From: a virus
Direction: 5' to 3' (one strand)
Length of the DNA: 64,000 nt
IMG/VR virus record: IMGVR_UViG_3300000970_000001
Location: 1 to 64,000 of that record
Under the pieces are notes generated by a model, which was not told the origin of the DNA, searched no databases, and worked only from the letters and a program-made list of their open reading frames with translations. Shown here in pieces: positions 12,860 through 36,321 of this stretch. Position numbers and translations under genes: made by a program. Within the stretch, counting starts at the first letter, position 1, and each line of letters begins with the position of its first letter.

Positions 12860-13016
12860 CGATTTCTAAGTCTTTATCTTGTTCCATAGACATGCACTTT
12901 TTGATCATACGTTCTATTAAAGAACTACGAGTACGATCTTCTAGTTGCATTCTTTGCATAATATACTGATCAATATCCTTAGTTAAGTATATTGTTCTCA
13001 TCTCTTTATTAGCCAT
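12825..13016 (-). CDS. ribbon-helix-helix (Arc/CopG-like) DNA-binding protein
   Basis: 63 aa. The pattern RTIYLTKDIDQYIMQRMQLEDRTRSSLIERMIKK fits beta-strand, helix, helix. It is the only minus-strand gene inside the late plus-strand module and overlaps the preceding gene convergently by 35 nt. Confidence 0.5.
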   Translation of the reverse strand: MANKEMRTIYLTKDIDQYIMQRMQLEDRTRSSLIERMIKKCMSMEQDKDLEIAMATKQLPDQN

Positions 13017-33782: not shown

Positions 33783-33860
33783 TGGCTGGAGTAATTGGAT
33801 TCGAACCAATCTTCATCTCGGTTAACAGCCGAGTGCATTCGCCTAGAATACTATACTCCA
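33783..33860 (-). tRNA. tRNA-Asn (GUU)
   Basis: Acceptor UGGAGUA/UACUCCA, anticodon stem-loop CUCGG CUGUUAA CCGAG, T-loop UUCGAAU, CCA. Confidence 0.88.
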
Positions 33861-33864
33861 AAAT

Positions 33865-33898
33865 TAAAAAACCCTCCTCAAGTACTTCTTGGGAGGGT
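33865..33898 (-). terminator. intrinsic terminator A, abutting the tRNA-Asn 5' end
   Basis: Minus-strand RNA ACCCUCC CAAGAAGUACUUGA GGAGGGU followed by UUUUUUAAUUUU. tRNA-Asn begins right after the U-tract. Confidence 0.75.
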
Positions 33899-33924
33899 GA
33901 AAATAAATAAACATACTTAATTGT

Positions 33925-33981
33925 TTACATACAACGACCCTCATCACCGCTTCTTCCAAAGCCGCGTGTCGAATAATTCAT
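33925..33981 (-). CDS. leader peptide ORF A (MNYSTRGFGRSGDEGRCM), putative attenuator leader
   Basis: 18 codons, starting 16 nt after the receiver-gene stop. 16 of 18 residues belong to the specificities of the downstream tRNA block. GAGGGU (33937-33942) is complementary to the terminator 5' arm ACCCUC. Confidence 0.55.
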   Translation of the reverse strand: MNYSTRGFGRSGDEGRCM

Positions 33982-33997
33982 ATCTGTATGTATACAG

Positions 33998-34336
33998 TTA
34001 AACATTTTCTTTAATCCAGTTTAGAACTTTCTGTTCAAGTTCTGATTTATCTACCATTTGATCCTGTGGTAGGTACAGGTTATTCATGTATAGTAACCCA
34101 GATGTAATTATAAAGTCAACTTCTTTTTTAACTTTAGGTCTAAGATCATCATAAATGGCTTTACCGTTTTCGTTTGATAGGTTTATATCTAATATTATAA
34201 GATCGTATTTGTCTATACTTATGGTAAAACCGTCATAATCACCAACAGTATGTATTTCTATTTCACAATCCTTTAACTTTTCTCTTAGTAATATACGTTC
34301 AGTAGGACAATCGTCAATATATAGAATGTGTTTCAT
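33998..34336 (-). CDS. stand-alone CheY-like receiver domain protein
   Basis: 112 aa from ATG 34336; the longer track ORF runs over two tRNA genes. Sequence MKHILYIDDCP...DLIILDINLSNENG...DFIITSG...VDK carries the acidic pair, phospho-acceptor Asp, Thr/Ser and Lys positions of receiver domains. Confidence 0.6.
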   Translation of the reverse strand: MKHILYIDDCPTERILLREKLKDCEIEIHTVGDYDGFTISIDKYDLIILDINLSNENGKAIYDDLRPKVKKEVDFIITSGLLYMNNLYLPQDQMVDKSELEQKVLNWIKENV

Positions 34337-34359
34337 TCCAGTATAGTAACATATAATAA

Positions 34360-34436
34360 TGGTACACGCCACAGGAATTGAACCTGTCTTAAAGAGGATG
34401 TAAACCTCCCGCTTAACGCCAGTCAGCCAGACGTGT
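34360..34436 (-). tRNA. tRNA-Val (UAC)
   Basis: Acceptor ACACGUC/GGCGUGU, anticodon stem-loop GGAGG UUUACAU CCUCU, T-loop UUCAAUU, CCA. Confidence 0.85.
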
Positions 34437-34442
34437 CTAAAT

Positions 34443-34518
34443 TGGTGGAACCTGTGGGAATCAAACCCACCGCAGTCTGCTTGCAAAGCAGTCTCGCCCT
34501 CTTGGAACATGAGGCCCC
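34443..34518 (-). tRNA. tRNA-Ala (UGC), atypical D-arm and T-loop
   Basis: 76 nt: acceptor GGGGCCU/AGGUUCC with G3-U70, anticodon loop UUUGCAA, T-loop UUUGAUU (U56). The D-arm folds only as GUUC/GGGC with a short loop. CCA encoded. Confidence 0.65.
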
Positions 34519-34524
34519 TTAAAC

Positions 34525-34601
34525 TGGAGATCGCGGTGGGATTCGAACCCACATACTTCTGGGTAAAAACCAGACGTAACAGCCAGTTGTACTACGCGAT
34601 C
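34525..34601 (-). tRNA. tRNA-Lys (UUU)
   Basis: Acceptor GAUCGCG/CGCGAUC, anticodon stem-loop UCUGG UUUUUAC CCAGA, T-loop UUCGAAU, CCA. Confidence 0.85.
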
Positions 34602-34602
34602 T

Positions 34603-34678
34603 TGGTTGTCGATGAAGGATTCGAACCTTCAACCTGCCCCTAATCAGGGGGCTGCACTACCAGTTGTGCTAATCGACA
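34603..34678 (-). tRNA. tRNA-Ile (GAU)
   Basis: Acceptor UGUCGAU/AUCGACA, anticodon stem-loop GCCCC CUGAUUA GGGGC, T-loop UUCGAAU, CCA. Confidence 0.88.
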
Positions 34679-34679
34679 A

Positions 34680-34705
34680 TAAAAAACCCACCTAAAAGGT
34701 GGGTC
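34680..34705 (-). terminator. intrinsic terminator B, abutting the tRNA-Ile 5' end
   Basis: Minus-strand RNA ACCCACC UUUUA GGUGGGU followed by UUUUUUAU. Confidence 0.75.
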
Positions 34706-34737
34706 TAGAATTCTTTTTCTTAAACATACGAAAAGAT

Positions 34738-34800
34738 TCAGCCCACCCCTCTGGTGTCTGCTTTAATCTTAATCGCTACAATGTTGTTTTGCTCTCGCAT
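34738..34800 (-). CDS. leader peptide ORF B (MREQNNIVAIKIKADTRGVG), putative attenuator leader
   Basis: 20 codons with GAGG upstream. Residues 7-14 (IVAIKIKA) use only the four specificities of the tRNAs that follow (Ile, Lys, Ala, Val). The last codons GGGGUGGGC (34741-34749) copy the terminator 3' arm and can pair with its 5' arm. Confidence 0.6.
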   Translation of the reverse strand: MREQNNIVAIKIKADTRGVG

Positions 34801-34820
34801 TTTCTCTATTTCCTCTAACT

Positions 34821-34897
34821 TGGAAGGGCTAACGGGATTCGAACCCGCGTCTACCAATTGAAAGTCGGTATGTCCTTGACCACTAGACGATAGCCCC
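34821..34897 (-). tRNA. tRNA-Glu (UUC)
   Basis: Anticodon stem-loop ACCGA CUUUCAA UUGGU, D-arm GUCUAGUGGUCAAGGAC, T-loop UUCGAAU, G1-U72, CCA. Confidence 0.85.
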
Positions 34898-34929
34898 ATT
34901 AAGTTAGTTTGGTGCTTATCGTTAGGATT

Positions 34930-34959
34930 AATATAACCTAGTTAATATAGGTATGTCAA
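34930..34959 (-). promoter_or_regulatory. sigma70-type promoter TTGACA-N18-TATATT facing tRNA-Glu
   Basis: The exact -35 consensus (plus 34954-34959 TGTCAA) and a 5/6 -10 (plus 34930-34935 AATATA) lie about 30 nt upstream of the tRNA-Glu 5' end. Confidence 0.55.
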
Positions 34960-34973
34960 CTTCTTTATTTAAT

Positions 34974-35047
34974 TGGCACAGGAACAAGGAATCAAACCTC
35001 AGTCTGCGGGGTTGGAAGCCGCCGTGTTATCACTACACTATTCCTGC
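34974..35047 (-). tRNA. tRNA-Trp (CCA), atypical D/T loops
   Basis: 74 nt: anticodon loop UUCCAAC with a C31-C39 mismatch, D-loop AGUGAUA (G18 A19), T-loop UUUGAUU (U56), CCA. Confidence 0.7.
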
Positions 35048-35048
35048 A

Positions 35049-35126
35049 TGGTTGGAGAGGTGGGGTTCGAACCCACATTGCACCCGTTCAAAGCGGGTAG
35101 CCTTACCAACTGTTGGCTACTCTCCA
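35049..35126 (-). tRNA. tRNA-Gln (UUG)
   Basis: U1-A72, anticodon stem-loop ACCCG CUUUGAA CGGGU, T-loop UUCGAAC, CCA. Confidence 0.88.
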
Positions 35127-35129
35127 TAA

Positions 35130-35206
35130 TGGTGCTCCCCCTCAGATTCGAACTGAGACTGTACCGCTTCTAAGGCGGCTCCCTCTGCCAGTTGGGGTAG
35201 AGGAGC
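35130..35206 (-). tRNA. tRNA with Leu anticodon UAG but a short (5-nt) variable loop
   Basis: 77 nt: acceptor GCUCCUC/GGGGAGC, anticodon stem-loop GCCGC CUUAGAA GCGGU, variable ACAGU, T-arm CUCAG UUCGAAU CUGAG, A73, CCA. Confidence 0.7.
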
Positions 35207-35214
35207 GTTATAAT

Positions 35215-35292
35215 TGGTCGGGTGGGCAAGATTCGAACTTGCGATACTCGGCCTCCAAAGCCGATAACTTGACCAGACTAGTTCACCACCCG
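35215..35292 (-). tRNA. tRNA-Pro (UGG)
   Basis: C1-G72, acceptor CGGGUGG/CCACCCG, anticodon stem-loop UCGGC UUUGGAG GCCGA, CCA. Confidence 0.88.
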
Positions 35293-35369
35293 TGGTACTC
35301 TCAGTCAGATTCGAACTGACACTGTGGGGATTTTAAGTCCCCTGCCTCTTCCAGTTGGGCTATGAGAGC
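35293..35369 (-). tRNA. tRNA with Leu anticodon UAA but a short (5-nt) variable loop
   Basis: 77 nt: acceptor GCUCUCA/UGAGAGU, anticodon stem-loop GGGGA CUUAAAA UCCCC, variable ACAGU, T-arm GUCAG UUCGAAU CUGAC, A73, CCA. It is a paralogue of the UAG tRNA. Confidence 0.7.
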
Positions 35370-35370
35370 T

Positions 35371-35410
35371 TAATACAAAAAGCCCCTCTATCTTGCGATT
35401 AGGGGCTTTT
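35371..35410 (-). terminator. intrinsic terminator C, abutting the first tRNA of the island
   Basis: Minus-strand RNA AAAAGCCCCU A AUC GCAA GAU AG AGGGGCUUUU UGUAUU, a 7-bp GC stem plus an inner GNRA-capped stem. Confidence 0.75.
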
Positions 35411-35439
35411 AAATTCTTTTGAACTTACTTAGACATACC

Positions 35440-35496
35440 TCAACGCTGTTCTCCTAAAGGGAGCAATTGTTGCAGTTGTGGTAACCAGTTGTTCAT
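35440..35496 (-). CDS. leader peptide ORF C (MNNWLPQLQQLLPLGEQR), putative attenuator leader
   Basis: 18 codons, starting 14 nt after the stop of the 105-aa gene. Residues 4-14 (WLPQLQQLLPL) use only Trp, Leu, Pro and Gln, exactly the specificities of the five tRNAs that follow. Confidence 0.6.
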   Translation of the reverse strand: MNNWLPQLQQLLPLGEQR

Positions 35497-35510
35497 AGTG
35501 TTAATATAGT

Positions 35511-35828
35511 CTATTCTTTGTTGTTTGTCAAATTTAAAAATTCTTCAGGAGTCATTTCAGTAGCAAGAAACTTATTTTCCTTGGTTATATACTGAACAGG
35601 TTCGATTATCTGACTGTCTATGTCAAGATATGCAACGTACCTTAGTATCTTATCCTCATCATTGACAGTTGGTGATTCTATTAAAGCTTTACATGGTGAA
35701 AACAACCAGTATCCATTATCTCCATATTTAGAAGAAAACACATACGTGAAGTCTTCATTAGGTATAATATGAAGAATCTTTACTGATTCATAAGATTCTT
35801 CTGATCCAAGTATAAATTTTTTAGTCAT
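35511..35828 (-). CDS. hypothetical protein
   Basis: 105-aa ORF with RBS AGAGGA. It lies downstream of the tRNA-like RNA and upstream of leader C. Confidence 0.55.
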   Translation of the reverse strand: MTKKFILGSEESYESVKILHIIPNEDFTYVFSSKYGDNGYWLFSPCKALIESPTVNDEDKILRYVAYLDIDSQIIEPVQYITKENKFLATEMTPEEFLNLTNNKE

Positions 35829-35878
35829 AGTTAGTCCTCTGTGGTTTAAGAGTTAAAAGTTAAAGTTACTCAGTAAAT

Positions 35879-35940
35879 TGGTGGAGCCGCTCGGTATTGC
35901 ACCGAGGTCCAGACTAAGCTGTCGATCCTATTTCGGCCCC
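35879..35940 (-). ncRNA. 62-nt tmRNA tRNA-like-domain (TLD)-like RNA lacking an mRNA-like domain
   Basis: Sequence: GGGGCCG AAAUA GGAUCGAC AGCUUAGUCU GGAC CUCGG UGCAAUA CCGAG CGGCUCC ACCA. It has a 7-bp acceptor stem with G3-U70, a T-arm, A73 and encoded CCA. GGAUCGAC and GGAC match tmRNA 5'/3' end motifs (E. coli GGAUUCGAC ... GGAC). Confidence 0.55.
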
Positions 35941-36084
35941 GAATAAGTGAAGAGGGAGAGGTTGGGATACTACTCTCATAGACCATGACCAAATACCTTT
36001 TGATTTACTGATCTAACCTATCGTTACTCTCATGTAGAGTAGCAGTGTCCCGCCCGATAGTACCTTATAACCTTTGGTAAGCTA

Positions 36085-36321
36085 TTATTCAGCCACCTCT
36101 TCATCTGGTATGCCTACCAGATATTCTAATAATTCTCTTGCTTTAAACTCATAAATGTCATACAGGCCATACTCTCGTATTTTTAAACCTGTTACTGATC
36201 CTATTTGAGTTGCGATTACATTAGCATATACTCTTGGGTATCGCAACTCAATAATAGGATTTTTTGGATTAATTTTAATCGCTTCCTGACATGTTTCTTT
36301 TAACCCTCGCAAGCGATACAT
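36085..36321 (-). CDS. hypothetical protein
   Basis: 78-aa ORF overlapping the nrdA 3' end by 22 nt. Confidence 0.45.
   Translation of the reverse strand: MYRLRGLKETCQEAIKINPKNPIIELRYPRVYANVIATQIGSVTGLKIREYGLYDIYEFKARELLEYLVGIPDEEVAE

Follow-up and report, generated by a model that had tools for sequence, protein, structure and literature searches.

The window analysed here is a 64,000-nucleotide (nt) stretch of viral DNA (positions 1 to 64,000 of the IMG/VR record IMGVR_UViG_3300000970_000001), which forms part of a 77.8-kb Joint Genome Institute (JGI) metagenome contig of a tailed phage. Within its cluster of transfer RNA (tRNA) genes lies a short leader region, module B, situated between tRNA-Glu and a block of tRNAs for Ile, Lys, Ala and Val. 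We propose that module B is probably a ribosome-mediated, multivalent transcription attenuator inside the phage tRNA operon, by which the synthesis of these tRNAs would be driven by demand. The proposal is based on the sequence elements of the module, on the alternative folds of its RNA and their energies, on the match between its leader codons and the tRNAs that follow, and on the recurrence and covariation of such modules in other phages. An earlier note, made from the letters of the window and a list of its open reading frames (ORFs), had interpreted the region as an attenuator; this interpretation is supported, every computational expectation of a leader-peptide attenuator having been borne out.

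Organisation of module B and its leader codons

The elements of module B and of the genes around it are as follows. The hairpin coordinates were set by hand from a promoter/terminator scan and from the folds described in the next section.

34959-34930, minus strand: sigma-70-type promoter, TTGACA-18-TATATT, 11 of 12 consensus matches
34897-34821, minus strand: tRNA-Glu(UUC), called by ARAGORN and by Rfam (tRNA, 56.9 bits)
34815-34812, minus strand: Shine-Dalgarno-like GAGG, 11 nt 5' of the AUG
34800-34738, minus strand: leader ORF MREQNNIVAIKIKADTRGVG, 20 codons and UGA, with its ATG at 34800, 20 nt past tRNA-Glu
34785-34723, minus strand: 1:2 (anti-antiterminator) hairpin, in the minimum free energy (MFE) fold of 34820-34679
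34782-34759, minus strand: regulatory codons 7-14, AUU GUA GCG AUU AAG AUU AAA GCA, encoding IVAIKIKA; proposed stall site
34750-34695, minus strand: antiterminator (2:3), AGGGGUGGGCUGAAUCUUUUC paired with GAAAAAGAAUUCUAGACCCACCUUU, about 20 bp, in the fold without the regulatory codons
34706-34679, minus strand: intrinsic terminator AGACCCACCUUUUAGGUGGGUUU and UUUAUU, that is AGACCCACCU-UUU-AGGUGGGUUU and then the U tract; 10 pairs, 5 of them G-C
34678-34603, minus strand: tRNA-Ile(GAU), the first regulated gene, called by ARAGORN and Rfam
34601-34525, minus strand: tRNA-Lys(UUU), called by ARAGORN and Rfam
34518-34443 (approximate), minus strand: probable tRNA-Ala(UGC), from a cloverleaf-like fold
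34436-34360, minus strand: tRNA-Val(UAC), the last of the regulated block, called by ARAGORN and Rfam

The promoter is one of the two best sites in the 31-36 kb region, the other being that which precedes a sister module, module A; promoter-like sites as a whole were not over-represented there (14 found vs 13.1 expected from shuffles). It is predicted to drive tRNA-Glu and the leader, and also the four tRNAs when the terminator is read through. As tRNA-Glu lies upstream of the attenuator, it is outside the control of the latter. The stem of this strong terminator occupies 34706-34684 and ends 5 nt before tRNA-Ile, which starts at 34678. Since a gap of only 5 nt leaves no room for a promoter, the four tRNAs would be made by read-through only.

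The earlier note had placed the leader ORF 20 nt past tRNA-Glu with a GAGG ahead of it, and had read its codons 7-14 as encoding I, V, A and K only; both readings hold in the sequence. The anticodons GAU, UAC, UGC and UUU read all eight of these codons, by Watson-Crick or G-U wobble pairing. When every set of four amino acids was considered (4845 sets), a single one gave a run of at least 8 in leader B, and this was the set belonging to the four downstream tRNAs. Among the 628 small ATG-initiated ORFs scanned in the window, one other contains an I/K/A/V run of at least 8. It is unlikely that the match between leader and tRNAs arose by chance.

The block had been described as Ile-Lys-Ala-Val, and its Ile, Lys and Val members were confirmed by both ARAGORN and Rfam. 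The Ala member is non-canonical and is supported by its fold, in which a 7-bp acceptor stem with G3:U70, a T arm and the anticodon loop UUUGCAA are present, the CCA is encoded and the D arm is aberrant. BLAST aligned window 34550-34442, which includes this gene, to another viral contig (L118, below) at 74.8% identity. In tRNA-Ile(GAU), the anticodon loop CUGAUUA was seen to carry a U at position 37, a purine being usual there.

Mutually exclusive folds of the leader RNA

The MFE structure of the free leader (34820-34679; -35.2 kcal/mol, z=-3.2) contains the 1:2 hairpin and the terminator together. In this hairpin the regulatory codons (AACAUUGUAGCGAUUAAGAUU), which make up most of region 1, are paired with GAAUCUUUUCGUAUGUU 3' of the stop codon, and GGGGUGGG is enclosed between them. 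A 1:2 alternative had been proposed in the earlier note as a short CACC:GGUG pairing; pairing of 1 with 2 does occur, but it is far larger than suggested and joins the codons to the segment after the stop. The segment with GGGUGGG which the note had pointed out at the end of the leader is present, as GGGGUGGGC at 34749-34741, immediately 5' of the UGA (34740-34738), and a distance of 15 nt or more separates the end of codons 7-12 from this segment downstream.

When the RNA upstream of 34758 was removed, mimicking a ribosome stalled on the I/V/A/K codons, the MFE structure switched to an antiterminator that captures the 5' arm of the terminator, in agreement with the predicted effect of such a stall. 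The pairing of the GGGUGGG segment with this arm thus exists as claimed, but it spans about 20 bp (34750-34695) and not the 7 bp first assigned to it. As long as the terminator 3' arm has yet to be transcribed, its energy is -19.5 kcal/mol; with that arm present and the regulatory codons masked, it is still the MFE structure (-27.9 kcal/mol). The terminator alone has about -14 to -16 kcal/mol, varying with the segment folded. The nascent segment folds more stably than its shuffles (z=-3.6), with 8 of the 9 nt of the terminator 5' arm paired upstream, and the z-scores in module B range from -3.2 to -3.9. The antiterminator, too, has a UUUU just 3' of it. Masking the RNA through 10 nt past the stop codon, as a terminating ribosome would, left the terminator only, which is the outcome that the earlier note had expected for a ribosome at the stop codon.

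Modules A and C of the same cluster

Two sister modules were identified in the cluster, both on the minus strand.

35531-35378, minus strand: module A, with promoter at 35531-35503, ORF MNNWLPQLQQLLPLGEQR at 35496-35440 and terminator at 35410-35378
34005-33871, minus strand: module C, with leader MNYSTRGFGRSGDEGRCM at 33981-33925 (or starting from the ATG at 34005) and terminator at 33898-33871

In module A, tRNA-Leu(UAA) begins 8 nt past the terminator and is followed by Pro, Leu(UAG), Gln and Trp. Its ORF is probably leaderless, starting near the expected transcription start, and contains a run of 11 residues drawn from L, P, Q and W, which no other small ORF of the window equals. The two leaders are specific for their own blocks: leader A has no residue from the set of block B, and leader B has one from the set of block A.

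Module C is followed by tRNAs for Asn, Phe and Gly and, further on, by Met, Met, Thr, Asp, His, Tyr, Arg, Ser and Arg. The ATG at 34005, which gives a long leader of 26 residues, overlaps the stop codon of the upstream receiver-domain gene. In this long leader 21 of 25 residues come from the ten amino acids served downstream, all ten of which are represented (binomial p=3e-4). Near the end of the module C leader we noticed a GAGGGU, a copy of the 3' arm of its terminator (33898-33871).

A family of modules homologous to module A

Three other viral loci (L058, L079 and L095) carry modules homologous to module A, the window copy being a diverged member of this family (family A). A shared 14-mer, GGGGTATGTCTTGA, used together with the terminator, retrieved at least 45 modules in IMG/VR. 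Their layout consists of a GGTTGACA..TATAAT-like promoter, an AAGGAAT ribosome binding site, a leader such as MSQTNTTYITCWPPSGGMS, GGGGUAUGUCUUGA, a small hairpin and a terminator AGCCCCUAG..UUAGGGGCUUUUUUU, after which comes tRNA-Trp, often with Pro, Cys, Ser, Gly, Ile, Tyr or Met next. Pairing is possible between a GGGGU that the leader has at its end and the GCCCCU in the 5' arm of the terminator; the stop codon comes 8 nt past the GGGGU.

At least 27 distinct combinations of leader and tRNA block were found in family A, and the core of the leader tracks the block: TCWPP stands ahead of Trp-Pro-Cys, SIIGWPS ahead of Trp-Pro-Gly-Ser-Met-Ile, PIYWYPI ahead of Trp-Ile-Tyr-Pro, and TQLCWPP ahead of Trp-Gln-Cys. 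Covariation of leader and tRNAs across 23 members, with the universal Trp excluded, was significant (permutation p=0.0015); with the module A of the window added, none of 20,000 permutations reached the observed value. A Cys codon is present in none of the six leaders whose block is without tRNA-Cys, and no leader free of Cys codons precedes a block with tRNA-Cys (counts 8/9/0/6, Fisher p=0.05). Conservation is strongest at the nucleotide level and crosses the stop codon into the non-coding hairpin and terminator, and the leaders also share a peptide-like motif, ..TNTTYITCWPP..GGMS. Neither Rfam nor the cultured phage records contained the family, and it was likewise missing from the genomes of 185,579 species (one genome each). 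Module B and family A have architecture and logic in common, with no detectable sequence homology between them.

As a side observation, the 4-kb viral contig of L079 contains a glutamine riboswitch (RF01739, 52.8 bits, above threshold) at 3022-2972 on its minus strand, a few hundred bases from the family A attenuator.

Modules of the B type elsewhere

We searched for the design of module B with the pattern GGGTGGG-N28-58-CCCACC-N3-9-GGTGGGTTTT, which captures the RNA logic GGGUGGG..CCCACC..GGUGGGUUUU. By our own estimate, from the size of the collection and the length of the pattern, about 0.4 chance matches are expected in IMG/VR; we obtained three tRNA-cluster loci and one irrelevant end of a prophage gene. 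The latter (hits L278-L292) is the 3' end of a protein gene, has no tRNAs near it and was discarded. A stricter pattern applied to metagenomes gave six stretches representing four distinct modules; the contig of the window itself, which that collection may lack, was not among the matches of that scan. Six further modules of the GGGUGGG/CCCACC/GGUGGG design were found in tRNA clusters, and every match in a tRNA cluster has a sigma-70 promoter and a leader ORF which ends in ..RVG, ..GVG or similar over the GGGUGGG and whose core fits the tRNAs downstream of it. Their leaders and tRNA blocks include the following.

L291: leader MQIIKNITIGTETGADTSLVRVG, core GTETGADT; tRNAs Glu, Thr, Met, Gly, Gly, Asp, Ala
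L294/L296: leader MKTISHITVAGTPETDTPRKLGVG, core AGTPETDTP; tRNAs Glu, Thr, Gly, Asp, Ala, Pro
L295/L297: leader MKNLNIILLGLAEGTTDSTRVGKV; tRNAs Asp, Met, Gly, Gly, Leu, Thr
L281: leader MFNLGTILLLTAETDLLFRVGMV; tRNAs Asp, Gly, Leu, Thr, Ile, Pro, Ala, Gly
L277/L293: leader MKNYTNIMLLDLNVKYRTCLSGGSYFV; tRNAs Tyr, Leu, then Thr, Asn

The modules were folded singly, since a MAFFT alignment of the seven misaligned the cores of L291 and L296 and the inner helices differ in length. In all seven B-type modules an antiterminator of 14-23 bp was obtained (-16 to -22 kcal/mol), which exceeds the terminator (-12 to -14 kcal/mol) in stability. The antiterminator helices extend past the core, with inner sequences that differ from module to module. 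In L281 and L295 a conserved AAAAAGTTWTTTTGTAACTTTGTA was also noticed in the spacer, 10-60 nt past the terminator, which could be a promoter or a processing signal.

In bacterial genomes the pattern had a single match, at 4690-4907 of L299, a metagenome-assembled genome of Ca. Berkiella. This match resembles the classical Trp-Trp leader of the tryptophan operon (MNTKSPRNKSFTNQNWWHTSTGW..) with its terminator, indicating that the B-type pattern captures attenuator logic.

Leader-tRNA matches in other viral contigs

A broader scan was carried out on a sample of 120 IMG/VR loci with at least three tandem tRNAs. Blocks were defined by ARAGORN, the 260-300 nt upstream of each were taken, and small ORFs were scored by a run or window of the amino acids of the block. 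Matching leaders were found at several loci.

L118 (424-kb contig): leader MNVFEHEFFAAERAAAEFAAAAFEAFCSDTVHRIR; tRNAs Glu, Ala, Phe, Ala
L118 (same contig): leader MNTNNTNPNNNPEVLQD; tRNAs Asn, Asn, Pro, Pro, Pro, Thr, Tyr
L099: leader MTTTVRTRVNGRGKNTILVDYCLF; tRNAs Gly, Thr, Arg, Arg, Ala, Val
L124: leader ..VITITNCVNNTT..; tRNAs Asn, Asn, Val, Val, Cys, Cys, Thr, Thr
L124: leader MPQPMQDQD..; tRNAs Gln, Pro, Asp, Gln, Pro, Asp
L140: leader MNLNITNLNLT..NNTLC..; tRNAs Leu (three), Arg, Asn (two), Thr, Cys
L079: leader ..QQPIYWYPI..; tRNAs Trp, Ile, Tyr, Pro

In the 120 loci, six blocks had a leader that fitted the tRNA set of the block at p<1e-4, the mean under permutation of the tRNA sets being 0.2 and the maximum 2 (200 permutations). 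A terminator and an ORF stand ahead of 63 blocks, of which six matched at p<1e-3 (permutation mean 0.49, maximum 3). The spacing from stop codon to terminator was 17-33 nt in 19 of 19 examples; in L124 (blocks starting at 2862, 3841 and 12741) and L140 (block at 12919), the terminator lies 24-28 nt past the stop. One candidate, the ORF MKKLLTLLQKQ.. ahead of Leu/Thr/Gln in L239, was rejected as a leader, as it overlaps a promoter and has no terminator.

Search for relatives of the window phage

A megablast of the window region against 50,697 phage records was empty, with no close cultured relative of the phage found, and blastn of the region against the same records gave scattered tRNA similarity only. 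The large terminase (TerL) is about 44% identical to that of Achromobacter phage JWF and Caulobacter phage Seuss. Relatives were sought in IMG/VR and in a set of 5.8 billion proteins, using as anchors the large subunit of ribonucleotide reductase, a neighbouring protein of 105 amino acids, PhoH and a tail protein. The 105-amino-acid ORF is a singleton among the 5.8 billion proteins. In the best relatives by ribonucleotide reductase (61-66% identity; L002-L006) and in phage Seuss (L007) this position lacks a tRNA cluster, and two IMG/VR contigs with 71-72% identical TerL stop short of the equivalent region.

Other features of the cluster and its surroundings

Structural genes on the plus strand of the window converge on replication genes on the minus strand, and the two groups are separated by the tRNA cluster (31.5-35.4 kb, minus strand). 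ARAGORN called 19 tRNAs in the cluster. Rfam alone detected an additional one at 33776-33704 (minus strand), which was read by eye as Phe(GAA). The folds suggest two further tRNAs called by neither program, namely the Ala(UGC) described above and a Tyr(GUA) at about 32607-32522 (minus strand), which has a long variable arm. With these extra tRNAs the cluster would serve 19 amino acids, Cys alone being missing.

Several protein genes are found within the cluster, all on the minus strand. Between the tRNAs of module B and module C, a gene at 34336-33998 encodes a stand-alone response-regulator receiver domain of 112 amino acids (PF00072, 27.9 bits, slightly below the threshold of 30.2). An HNH/HTH homing-endonuclease-like gene (33599-33123) is situated between tRNA-Gly and tRNA-Met, and a basic, Cys-rich ORF of 49 amino acids (32900-32751), with a good AAGGAG site, has its 3' end within tRNA-Asp.

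Upstream of the cluster, an RNA gene of about 62 nt (35940-35879, minus strand) resembles the tRNA-like domain of transfer-messenger RNA (tmRNA), with the mRNA-like part absent. Its acceptor stem, GGGGCCG/CGGCUCC, contains G3:U70; GGAUCGACAG and a T arm are also present, and the CCA is encoded. Rfam scored it as tmRNA at 40.2 bits (threshold 47, E=1e-14), and ARAGORN did not call it. A match to the manA RNA motif (RF01745; 36122-35947, minus strand; 47.6 bits, threshold 55.2, E=4e-11) sits between this element and the ribonucleotide reductase gene.

Discussion

How module B would work

Taken together, the elements of module B suggest the following sequence of events. Host RNA polymerase would start at the promoter (34959-34930), transcribe tRNA-Glu and then the leader, and a ribosome would load at the AUG at 34800. 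With Ile-, Val-, Ala- and Lys-tRNAs plentiful in aminoacylated form, the ribosome would reach the UGA and cover GGGGUGGG and the bases beyond; the terminator (34706-34684) would then fold and transcription would end just before tRNA-Ile. If any of the four were scarce, a ribosome stalled on codons 7-14 would hold region 1 and free GGGGUGGGCUGAAUCUUUUC to pair with the 5' arm of the terminator, and the polymerase would read through into tRNA-Ile, Lys, Ala and Val. Were the leader not translated at all, the 1:2 hairpin would form and termination would follow. That the leader is translated, that translation is coupled to the polymerase, and that the signal is a shortage of this kind is what we infer from the arrangement. 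A change of GGGGUGGG to CCCCUGGG would be predicted to abolish read-through, and compensatory changes in CCCACC/GGUGGG to restore it. As the regulated tRNAs would themselves relieve the stall, the device would act by negative feedback and keep phage tRNA synthesis in step with the demand for decoding. The shortage could come from host shut-off, from a mismatch in codon usage, or from cleavage of host tRNAs by anticodon-nuclease defence systems.

We lean towards the wider view that module B belongs to a general class, which may be termed tRNA-demand attenuators, in which tRNA blocks are led by peptides written in their own codons and the phage copies are switched on only when the cell is short of them, with several unrelated sequence families contributing to the class.

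Points that weigh against this interpretation

A number of observations count against the attenuator, and against its generality. The Shine-Dalgarno-like GAGG is weak and distant, its spacing of 11 nt from the AUG being long and above the optimum. Sequence rich in A+T favours I/K/A/V runs by itself, and one other small ORF of the window has a run of 8. The tRNA-Ala was called by neither ARAGORN nor Rfam. None of the collections searched contained a phage sharing the Ile-Lys-Ala-Val block; the modules of other viral contigs that repeat the architecture, with leaders that change with their tRNA sets, are analogous and in part homologous ones. The antiterminator of module A is weak in the window; there the codon equivalent to GGG/AGG, which gives the antiterminator its GGGG in family A, is now the stop codon UGA, a change that would weaken the antiterminator and matches the weak fold. 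The core of the B-type modules was imposed by the search pattern, so that it is the tRNA context, the leader match and the inner helices that are independent. B-type relatives also have 80-170 nt between terminator and first tRNA, which is room enough for a promoter.

At the level of the wider class, a second independent sample (116 tRNA-cluster loci, collected with a different T-loop pattern) showed no global enrichment; its sole convincing case was L353, where MKTLNTTNSSTAPV.. stands ahead of Thr, Asn, Pro, Ser and Ser. The tRNA region of phage T5 contains no such module. The device is limited to some lineages and is not general to phage tRNA clusters, which may explain why model phages did not reveal it. 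For the matching leaders of L124 and L140 an antiterminator was not seen in a simple fold of the nascent RNA, and this lineage may use a different switch.

Other explanations

The same attenuator hardware could instead sense amino-acid supply or general translation capacity in the style of ilv, leu or his, with no feedback from the tRNA pool and with the tRNAs merely rising when translation slows. A sensor of aminoacyl-tRNA cannot separate a shortage of amino acid from a shortage of tRNA, the architecture of module B is that of amino-acid operon attenuators, and the B-type pattern also found the Trp-Trp leader of Ca. Berkiella. Extra tRNA would not relieve a shortage of amino acid, however, and the block-by-block match of leaders to tRNAs and the covariation within families are what selection on the tRNA pool is expected to produce; we therefore regard this explanation as unlikely.

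The hairpin might also be a plain terminator or processing hairpin, with read-through set by a phage antitermination factor, by temporal control or by constitutive partial leakage, and with an incidental ORF. Module B does contain a G+C-rich hairpin with a U tract 3' of a gene, closing the unit of promoter and tRNA-Glu; factor-dependent antitermination is common in phages; and the weak ribosome binding site, as well as the matching leaders elsewhere that lack a detectable antiterminator, would fit. But a plain terminator is insufficient, as it would leave the four tRNAs promoterless and the ORF, the antiterminator and the comparative data without explanation. Nor does this reading account for the matched codon run, for a stop codon at which a terminating ribosome would cover region 2, for the 1:2, 2:3 and 3:4 alternatives, or for the recurrence and covariation in unrelated contigs, and we consider it improbable.

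That a short I/K/A/V ORF happened to arise in an A+T-rich spacer beside an ordinary terminator is more improbable still. It could draw on the second I/K/A/V run of the window and on the fact that neither promoter-like nor terminator-like sites are over-represented in 31-36 kb; it is opposed by three modules in one cluster that each match their own block and not the others, by the permutation controls and by the folding z-scores. We give next to no credence to a functional micropeptide whose composition is unrelated to regulation, for although the family A leaders share a peptide-like motif, their conservation is of nucleotides that run into the non-coding hairpin and terminator, their variable residues follow the tRNA content, and leader B has no homologue in the peptide sense.

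Relation to known attenuators

Module B carries the sequence features by which leader-peptide attenuators are recognised, namely a leader ORF with a putative ribosome binding site, cognate codons, an intrinsic terminator with a promoterless gap after it, an antiterminator that excludes the terminator, a 1:2 hairpin that pre-empts the antiterminator, and a suitably placed stop codon; its output is four tRNA genes, and not genes for biosynthesis, transport or an aminoacyl-tRNA synthetase. The enterobacterial ilvGMEDA and ilvBN operons have multivalent leader-peptide attenuators upstream of their biosynthetic enzyme genes. Module B resembles them in its short leader with codons for several amino acids, in its 1:2, 2:3 and 3:4 hairpins, in a terminator just before the genes, and in that a stall at any codon type would give read-through. 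It differs in that decoding tRNAs are the output and that it sits in a phage tRNA operon after tRNA-Glu, and it shares no sequence homology with them. With the trp, his, leu, thr and pheA leaders it has in common the mechanism class, the geometry and a stop codon beside region 2; its codon run is mixed, unlike theirs, and its targets are tRNAs. Weak Rfam matches to two such leaders fell on 34678-34786, both far below the gathering threshold (Trp_leader RF00513, 23.2 vs 41 bits; Phe_leader RF01859, 24.9 vs 55 bits).

Closer in function is pheST of E. coli, where a leader-peptide attenuator controls phenylalanyl-tRNA synthetase, and hence a decoding component for the amino acid that is sensed. 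That system is chromosomal, responds to one amino acid and yields a synthetase, whereas module B belongs to a phage, would respond to four amino acids and would yield tRNAs. T-box elements likewise couple transcription antitermination of translation-apparatus genes to the state of tRNA, but they bind uncharged tRNA through a specifier codon without a ribosome, while in module B the sensor would be the ribosome and the output tRNA genes. The T-box model (RF00230) had no match in the window at gathering thresholds, and none in 33800-36100 at E<=5.

To our knowledge, leader-peptide attenuators control genes of amino-acid biosynthesis or transport or, for pheST, a synthetase. We found no description of leader-peptide control of tRNA genes, phage or cellular, in a literature search whose coverage excluded much of the older work in subscription journals. 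The departure of module B from known attenuators is that its output is the sensed tRNAs themselves.

Implications

Phage tRNA genes are usually seen as constitutive early or middle genes which correct a codon mismatch or replace destroyed tRNAs, and as far as we know their regulation is largely unexplored. If our interpretation of module B is true, a leader-peptide attenuator would here, for the first time, produce the very tRNA that it senses, with supply on demand for each tRNA block, and the reach of classical attenuation would widen beyond the metabolism of amino acids to include the tRNA pool. Such a module would also offer a ready-made, codon-specific sensor of decoding capacity for studies of anticodon-nuclease defence and for synthetic biology. 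The composition of a leader may in addition serve as an aid to annotation, since it predicts the tRNAs that follow, even those whose aberrant form lets them escape tRNA finders, as with the tRNA-Ala of this phage.

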